Of a stretch of DNA of 44,405 nt, positions 37,692 to 37,782 are shown in pieces. Both the position numbers and the translations under genes were made by a program. How positions within the stretch are numbered: position 1 is the first letter of the stretch; every line of letters begins with the position of its first letter. The stretch comes from Escherichia phage EC3-1. The DNA is taken from the sequence record PQ571288.1, one strand, 5' to 3'. The notes beneath the pieces are model-generated. The model saw only the letters and a program-made list of their open reading frames with translations, ran no database searches and had not been told where the DNA came from.

Positions 37692-37782
37692 ATAATCCCC
37701 TTGCGTATGCGTCTGACCATCAGAGCGCATCAGACGCGCCCTACGCGTCTAAAGGGATTATATAAGGGGATTGGGCGGGATG

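Follow-up and report, generated by a model that had tools for sequence, protein, structure and literature searches.

In phage T4, the genes e (lysozyme), soc, 49 and I-TevI, and also segB and Aeh1 mobE, have a promoter embedded in the 5' arm of an RBS-sequestering helix (PMC3014915, PMC2988022). RNA initiated further upstream contains both arms and is translated poorly, whereas transcripts from the embedded promoter are made without the 5' arm (PMC3014915, PMC2988022). We compared with this design the leader of the small terminase subunit gene (terS) of Escherichia phage EC3-1 (PQ571288.1), for which the stretch of 44,405 nucleotides, referred to below as the window, was analyzed. As in the T4-type genes, the SD and AUG of terS are paired in the computed fold with an upstream segment that holds a -10 hexamer, and the predicted transcription start (A37750) lies one base past the 5' arm, with the same geometry in all lineages. 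We therefore consider it about an even chance (a probability of roughly 0.5) that the origin of the transcript decides terS translation, by a control of the T4 gene e/I-TevI type that would here use a sigma-70-type promoter and include a three-way junction. The differences from T4 are also clear. The promoter here is of the sigma-70 type (TGTACA-18-TATAAT), whereas the T4 promoter is of the late class and gp55-dependent (TATAAATA); the helix is the closing stem of a three-way junction with two independently conserved hairpins (hp1 and hp2), whereas that of T4 is a simple stem-loop; and an intrinsic terminator is present 29 nt upstream, the target is the terminase, and the sequence is not homologous to those of the T4 elements. 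The leader would accordingly be a functional analogue that acts like the T4 elements but stands outside that set, which is defined by a late-class promoter. To our knowledge, the phage group of the window encodes no known late sigma factor. The leader RNA is not described in the searchable literature, nor is T4-like gating for Guernseyvirinae, and we found there neither transcript ends or transcription starts for Jersey-, Kaguna- and other Guernseyvirinae phages nor translation or packaging-end data for Guernseyvirinae; a time-course RNA-seq paper gives gene-level classes only (PMC12645636).

The window represents a nearly complete genome of a Kagunavirus-like siphophage (subfamily Guernseyvirinae), and its region 37000..38600 matched 167 phage records with 80-95% identity, chiefly Kagunavirus and phages of Escherichia and Salmonella. 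The gene order on the minus strand is small ORFs (~39.7 to 37.8 kb), then terS, terL and the portal gene. The terS gene (37146..37691, minus strand) encodes a small terminase subunit of 181 aa, which matched phrog_3064 'terminase' (E = 1e-72) with an alignment from residue 1, and terL (35899..37149, minus strand) encodes the large subunit with Terminase_6N and Terminase_6C domains. The terS stop and the terL ATG overlap as ATGA (37149..37146), indicating that the two genes are probably coupled in translation, and a gate on terS would for the same reason, the overlap of the terL AUG with the terS stop, extend to terL. At the end of the upstream small-gene operon, a sequence scan located an intrinsic terminator (37788..37807, minus strand; GCCCTC-UACG-GAGGGC followed by UUUU). 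An initial annotation, made from the sequence alone, had rightly reported a terminator here and had placed it at 37783..37806; the scan shifts it to 37807..37788. The element has the G+C-rich stem-loop and the U-run of an intrinsic (Rho-independent) terminator, and its efficiency is uncertain because the U-run is short (4 U). It is present in all lineages, 28-29 nt 5' of the -10, and its stem shows a compensatory change across lineages (GCCCTC/GAGGGC versus GCCCGC/GCGGGC) as well as a G.U variant (GTGGGC). Minus-strand sigma-70-like sites at 40008 and 39788 are situated upstream of the small-gene operon and, judging from their sequence, could be its drivers. The locus is best explained as the boundary between the upstream small-gene operon and the packaging-head operon. 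Directly 5' of the terminator is a 73-aa ORF (37817-38038, minus strand), which is named NinH, transcriptional regulator or DNA-binding protein in relatives; it had no Pfam match, and its sole PHROG match was PHROG 9799 (function not known).

Downstream of the terminator, the perfect TATAAT that had been reported on the minus strand was found at 37762..37757, and the accompanying remark that a good -35 is lacking also held: the -35-like hexamer TGTACA (37781..37786, minus strand), 18 nt 5' of the -10, matches the consensus at 4/6 positions only. The hexamer pair (TGTACA-18 nt-TATAAT, 37786..37757) still reaches 10/12 matches to the sigma-70 consensus. TGTACA is kept in Kaguna- and Jersey-type phages, and the other lineages have TTGCCT, TTGCTA or TTGCCA as the -35-like hexamer at a 17-nt spacing, with unrelated spacer sequences. 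Among 36 non-redundant leaders, positions 1, 2, 4, 5 and 6 of the -10 (37757..37762, minus strand) were invariant, and position 3 alone varied (TACAAT in Jerseyvirus). The first two bases of the -10 are invariant despite the fact that their partners are often unpaired (column pair 8-88 was broken in 13/36 leaders and 9-82 in 17/36), indicating that their conservation is explicable by a promoter and not by pairing. A predicted sigma-70-type promoter is supported by this conservation, that is, by the invariant TAnAAT, the -35-like hexamers at 17-18 nt and the diverged spacers; hexamers, a spacer of 16-18 nt and conservation among relatives, as expected of a sigma-70 promoter, are all found. The initial annotation had proposed an activator-dependent late promoter, of which the promoter stands on the grounds of conservation, whereas activator dependence does not, given the 10/12 consensus match and the fact that no activator site was identified. 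In its sequence, the predicted promoter resembles common sigma-70 promoters; its activity could begin as soon as the phage infects, and any temporal logic would then be weaker. The predicted start A37750 (minus strand), set by the standard sigma-70 spacing at 7 nt past the -10, is the first paired base of hp1. In every lineage, 7-10 nt separate the -10 and hp1, so that hp1 begins 0-3 nt from the predicted start.

The leader was also said to carry a segment complementary to the terS RBS and start, and this was found as 37764..37751 against 37702..37689. The inverted repeat spans 13 nt (37751-37763 x 37690-37702) with 92% complementarity, and with G.U pairs it gives 14 pairs over the SD and AUG; the minimum-free-energy fold pairs 37764..37751 with 37702..37689. 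In the resulting helix, designated P1, the 5' arm (UAUAUAAUCCCUUU, 37751..37764, minus strand) is an anti-SD segment that consists of the -10 hexamer and the discriminator, and the 3' arm (AAGGGGAUUAUAUG, 37689..37702, minus strand) includes the terS SD (AGGGGA, 37701..37696) and AUG (37691..37689). The P1 5' arm coincides with the -10 and discriminator in every lineage. P1 is the outer helix of a three-way junction in the fold of 37815..37670, the inner members being hp1 (AGACGCG-UAGGG-CGCGUCU, 37732..37750, minus strand), a hairpin already recognized in the initial annotation, and hp2, which has a bulged stem (AUGCG-C-UCUGA-UGG-UCAGA-CGCAU, 37707..37730, minus strand). The folding energy was -55.3 kcal/mol, compared with -39.5 +/- 3.7 for shuffled sequences (z = -4.3, 0/200). 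Leader folding, which had been named as a check, placed the SD and AUG in pairing with the -10 and discriminator. The P1 arm duplex alone reached -15.6 kcal/mol, compared with -4.3 +/- 2.0 for shuffled sequences (0/1000). A second anti-SD copy (AATCCCCTT, 37764..37772, minus strand) is located in the promoter spacer and is a perfect 9-nt complement of AAGGGGATT (37702..37694); it is specific to Kagunavirus, variable there, and paired in the minimum-free-energy fold of the common Kagunavirus variants. This second copy, hp2, the in-frame ATG at 37730 described below and the promoter transcript without the complementary segment are additions to what had been noted before. Taken together, these elements define a conserved leader RNA of 83 nt (37772 to 37689), composed of two hairpins and a closing anti-SD/SD helix, which is absent from Rfam.

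Because the -10 is inside the P1 5' arm and the predicted start A37750 comes after the arm, RNA initiated at this promoter would not contain the anti-SD arm, and sequestration would consequently be able to act on terminator read-through RNA only. Promoter and sequestration had been offered as an 'and/or' pair; both are supported, but they are not alternatives on one RNA. The computed accessibility of the RBS differed in the corresponding direction. The mean unpaired probability of SD..AUG was 0.22 for the read-through RNA versus 0.63 for the promoter-initiated RNA, and in 13 representatives it was 0.15-0.50 for the long RNA and 0.52-0.70 for the short RNA. From these features we infer promoter activity, the start site, terminator read-through and an effect on translation, as follows. 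RNA polymerase would bind at TGTACA-18-TATAAT and start at about A37750, producing an mRNA that has hp1 and hp2 at its 5' end and a single-stranded SD and AUG, from which terS and the ATGA-coupled terL would be translated. RNA that passes the terminator at 37807..37788 would keep the -10/discriminator segment (in Kagunavirus, together with the second anti-SD copy), and this segment would pair with the SD and AUG, close the three-way junction of P1, hp1 and hp2, and hide the RBS. This gating model gives no account of the conserved loops of the two hairpins (A-UGG-U in hp2 and YNGGG in hp1).

The leader is widely distributed in the subfamily. A query with the leader matched 428 phage records, and diverged leader queries added Cornellvirus and unclassified Guernseyvirinae of Klebsiella, Serratia, Hafnia and Enterobacter; a covariance model found further IMG/VR lineages with the leader. 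The module is hence shared by Kaguna-, Jersey- and Cornellvirus, the unclassified Klebsiella, Serratia, Hafnia and Enterobacter phages, and IMG/VR lineages, and the order is fixed in all of them: terminator, 28-29 nt, TATAAT (TACAAT in Jerseyvirus), 7-10 nt, hp1, 1-2 nt, hp2, SD and AUG. A pattern scan of IMG/VR with TGATGGTCANACGCAT mostly found the same phages again, along with chance matches. The leader is 75-80% identical among Kaguna-, Jersey- and Cornellvirus, and TerS is 28-41% identical between lineages. In Cornellvirus-type phages (H87 and H89), the blastn alignment was of the leader alone, without the flanking genes. Salmonella phage 4FS1 (L153) and SE126_1pH (L159) have mosaic leaders, in which a promoter and discriminator of the Kagunavirus type are joined to hp1, hp2 and terS of the Jerseyvirus type, indicating that the leader has recombined internally, at a point that lies between the -10 region and hp1.

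The hairpins showed extensive covariation. In a MAFFT alignment (A1), 98.3% of the hp1 cells and 97.2% of the hp2 cells were paired, and both partners had changed in 4 pairs of hp1 and in 7 pairs of hp2. With the structure taken as a whole, 0/500 shuffles reached the observed values, and sliding the partners lowered the pairing to 30-54%. In a covariance-model alignment of 31 leaders, which leans towards structure because it is fitted to the model, double changes were present in 12/18 pairs and, for hp1, in 6/8 pairs. The stems are wholly different in Klebsiella phages (GUGGCCC/GGGCCGC and GCGUA/UACGC), in Serratia phages (AAGGCCC/GGGCUUU and GCCGA/UCGGC) and in the L190 lineage (UACCGA/UCGGUA), and the hp2 stem of L180 is different too. 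What is kept despite stem replacement is the hp2 loop UGG (CGG in L189) with its closing A-U pair, and a G-rich hp1 loop. Within the leader, conservation is strongest in hp1 and hp2. In hp1, G.U pairs make up 17.9% of the cells and become A.C mismatches on the opposite strand, and, since they are valid on the terS-sense strand only, the structure under selection is that of the terS-sense RNA. This bears on the idea that the region is instead a DNA-level signal for headful packaging, namely, pac or a site bound by TerS. In some phages, such as SPP1, pac lies immediately upstream of terS, and the present region is directly 5' of terS and highly conserved in sequence. We give scarcely any credence to this idea, because the pairing is strand-specific (18% of the hp1 cells being A.C mismatches on the other strand), the structure is retained where the stems have been replaced in the Klebsiella, Serratia and L190 lineages, so that what is conserved is the pairing, TerS is far less conserved than the leader, and GenBank records begin at scattered, conventional positions, with no fixed end.

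P1 is conserved to a lesser extent. Its duplex clearly exceeded shuffled sequences also in Klebsiella, Hafnia, PSDA-2 and phiEap-2 phages and in Jerseyvirus, and it was weak in Cornellvirus SP-049 (-4.6 kcal/mol, p ~0.15), in Serratia phages (-6.0, p ~0.2) and in Kagunavirus CCATTT variants. In most Kagunavirus relatives A37693 is replaced by C, with the loss of one P1 pair, and several have CCA or CTA after the -10 instead of CCC. When counted alone, P1 was 87.4% paired compared with 84.4% for shuffles, with 4 pairs changed on both sides, a value reached by 16/500 shuffles; no covariation was seen in its distal part (TATA with the start codon). The core of P1 (AAUCCCU with GGGGAUU) was predicted de novo by RNAalifold in 36 relatives, together with hp1 and hp2. 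Furthermore, across seven lineages, cognate P1 arms gave -69.3 kcal/mol, compared with -54.2 +/- 5.3 for swapped arms, and 6-16 of the 5040 permutations were as good; this test controls for the inherited AAUCC/GGAUU core. In L180 and L181, the SD is changed (GAGGUU) and the anti-SD is changed to match (AACCUC / GAACCU). The AUU 3' of the SD is nearly invariant, whereas SD-AUG spacers are normally unconstrained. As far as sequence comparison can tell, P1 is a real helix that tolerates mismatches, varies in strength and has arms that co-evolve. The sequestration of the terminase RBS that had been suggested for this leader is accordingly upheld by the fold, the RNAalifold core, the compensatory changes and the advantage of cognate over swapped arms.

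The uneven conservation is nonetheless a ground for an explanation in which P1 would be non-regulatory: the promoter would be followed by hp1 and hp2 as 5' stabilizers against 5'-end-dependent decay, and the terminator would stop nearly all upstream transcription. The 5'-terminal stem-loops that stabilize mRNAs in E. coli, such as that of the ompA 5' UTR, need structure and not particular loop sequences. The terS leader resembles them in that a stable hairpin follows the predicted 5' end at a distance of 0-3 nt in every lineage, and hp1, at the extreme 5' end, would be suited to such a role; the conservation of hp1 and hp2 far above that of P1, and the weak or mismatched P1 in several lineages and many Kagunavirus variants, are in line with it. 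It differs from them in that its loops are conserved, which a pure stability role does not explain. The explanation also has no place for the recovery of P1 by RNAalifold, for cognate arms that beat swapped ones at the ~0.3% level, or for the nearly invariant AUU after the SD and the matching anti-SD of the lineages with an altered SD. We therefore regard stabilization without regulation as a tentative alternative that is rather unlikely, and control of terS by transcript origin, in which hp1 may serve as a stabilizer as well, as the preferred reading.

The loop-closing A-U pair of hp2 is invariant, and the invariant hairpin loops may, if the structural model is correct, point to a partner. 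One possibility is an operator activated in trans, in which the three-way junction would form on the main terS mRNA and the RBS would be opened by a factor that recognizes hp1 and hp2, either a phage or host protein similar to Com of Mu or RNase III cleaving the coaxial P1-hp1 stack, so that terminase synthesis would be timed or feedback-controlled. In the mom gene of phage Mu, the RBS is occluded by secondary structure, and Com activates translation. The terS leader is similar in that its RBS is occluded and an adjacent hairpin could be a protein-binding site; the maintenance of the loops (A-UGG-U in hp2 and the G-rich loop in hp1) across wholly different stems suggests a specific ligand, and P1 is stacked directly on hp1 with ~23 continuous pairs on the 5' strand. 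It is unlike Com/mom in that neither a Com-like protein nor a binding motif was identified for the terS leader. We consider this operator improbable: the TAnAAT pattern and the fixed -35 spacing fit a promoter and not pairing, the transcript from the predicted promoter would be without the 5' arm, there is one copy of the element per genome, and the analysis identified no candidate protein that would bind it.

Another possibility is that hp1 and hp2 act in cis on the elongating RNA polymerase to suppress pausing or termination along the structural operon, as the put RNAs of phage HK022 do. The putL and putR sites are adjacent stem-loops directly 3' of a sigma-70 promoter and cause read-through via the zinc-binding domain of the RNA polymerase beta' subunit (PMC9378689). 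The terS leader shares this general layout (PMC9378689), in that the operon opens with a sigma-70 promoter and, directly 3' of it, two stem-loops 1-2 nt apart, and terminator-like hairpins are present downstream on the same strand at 34394, 32827 and 29861. However, put RNA is ~70 nt long and folds into two stem-loops that are long and irregular, stem I containing a triplex (PMC9378689), whereas the present element is ~45 nt long, has short regular stems (7-8 bp and 5+5 bp) and no triplex-forming segment, and so lacks the features that define put. A scan of 37400..38100 on both strands gave no Rfam match at E <= 10, and a search of the window for a second hp1-hp2 copy with a covariance model (R1, filters off) returned the known site only (67 bits; all the rest at E > 1), the element being single in each genome. 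Moreover, processive antitermination is not required, because promoter-like sites follow the strong downstream terminators. A put-like function is on this evidence barely probable. Hardly more probable, and still very unlikely, is that hp1-hp2 would be more than a passive 5' cap and constitute a new class of cis-acting phage RNA, transcribed at the very beginning of the packaging/structural operon, that engages RNA polymerase (with put-like anti-pausing or antitermination) or a dedicated phage or host protein, with the anti-SD helix as a second, translational gate. Two regulatory motifs of other kinds were also considered for the hairpins and rejected. A riboswitch-like perfect helix of 8 bp (37737..37730 x 37716..37709; GCGUCUGA / UCAGACGC), which is mutually exclusive with hp1 and hp2, was by inspection unconserved outside Kagunavirus, and no CsrA-type GGA loop motif was seen by eye, the loops being GGG or UGG.

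We also considered whether the hairpins are coding. An in-frame ATG at 37730, inside hp2, lies upstream of terS, and the SD-preceded terS ATG is 39 nt downstream of it. As a conserved ORF, the 13-codon extension from ATG 37730 was rejected: it contains stops in PSDA-2, GRNsp27, and Klebsiella and Serratia phages, is out of frame in Hafnia and Klebsiella phages, has no start codon in Serratia phages, and carries many non-synonymous changes within Kagunavirus. The PHROG 3064 alignment begins at the downstream Met of terS, which, together with the unconserved extension, indicates that the hairpins are non-coding. The terS starts in GenBank disagree, being at the upstream ATG in some records and at the SD-preceded ATG in others (L152, L156, L159 and L162 versus L151, L153 and L160). 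Because the extension has stops or frameshifts in several lineages, a start at the upstream ATG is probably a misannotation, and the many GenBank records that place the terS start at the hp2 ATG are very probably wrong. The hp2 loop further contains a conserved AUG (37720), which opens a 10-codon ORF (37689-37720, minus strand) with a UGA that overlaps the terS AUG (AUAUGA). This uORF was set aside, as it has no SD and its end varies by lineage, being upstream of the SD, overlapping the terS AUG or in frame into terS.

If the control by transcript origin is true, Guernseyvirinae, a large group whose members infect Salmonella, E. coli and Klebsiella and find use in biocontrol and phage therapy, would gain a testable mechanism that ties terminase synthesis to one promoter, and the T4 design of a promoter inside an RBS hairpin would have arisen independently with host sigma-70 promoters.

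Two further segments of the minus strand are of note. At 32210-32830, ~600 bp contain no ORF of at least 110 aa and are flanked by a bidirectional terminator (32808-32827) and a terminator (32252-32233). This stretch carries AATAGT/ACTATT palindromes at ~32560-32538 and 32476-32456, which resemble the 'phage promoter' consensus of Kagunavirus fBC-Eco01 (PMC9825357), and a TTGACT-type promoter-like site before a structured segment, which could represent a small RNA or a mini-ORF. At 29815-29868, a TATAAT (29868..29863) is located 1 nt 5' of a terminator-like hairpin (29861..29840), which is directly followed by the RBS and ATG (29817) of the next gene, representing a second gene junction at which a -10-like hexamer, with no good -35, stands against a hairpin.
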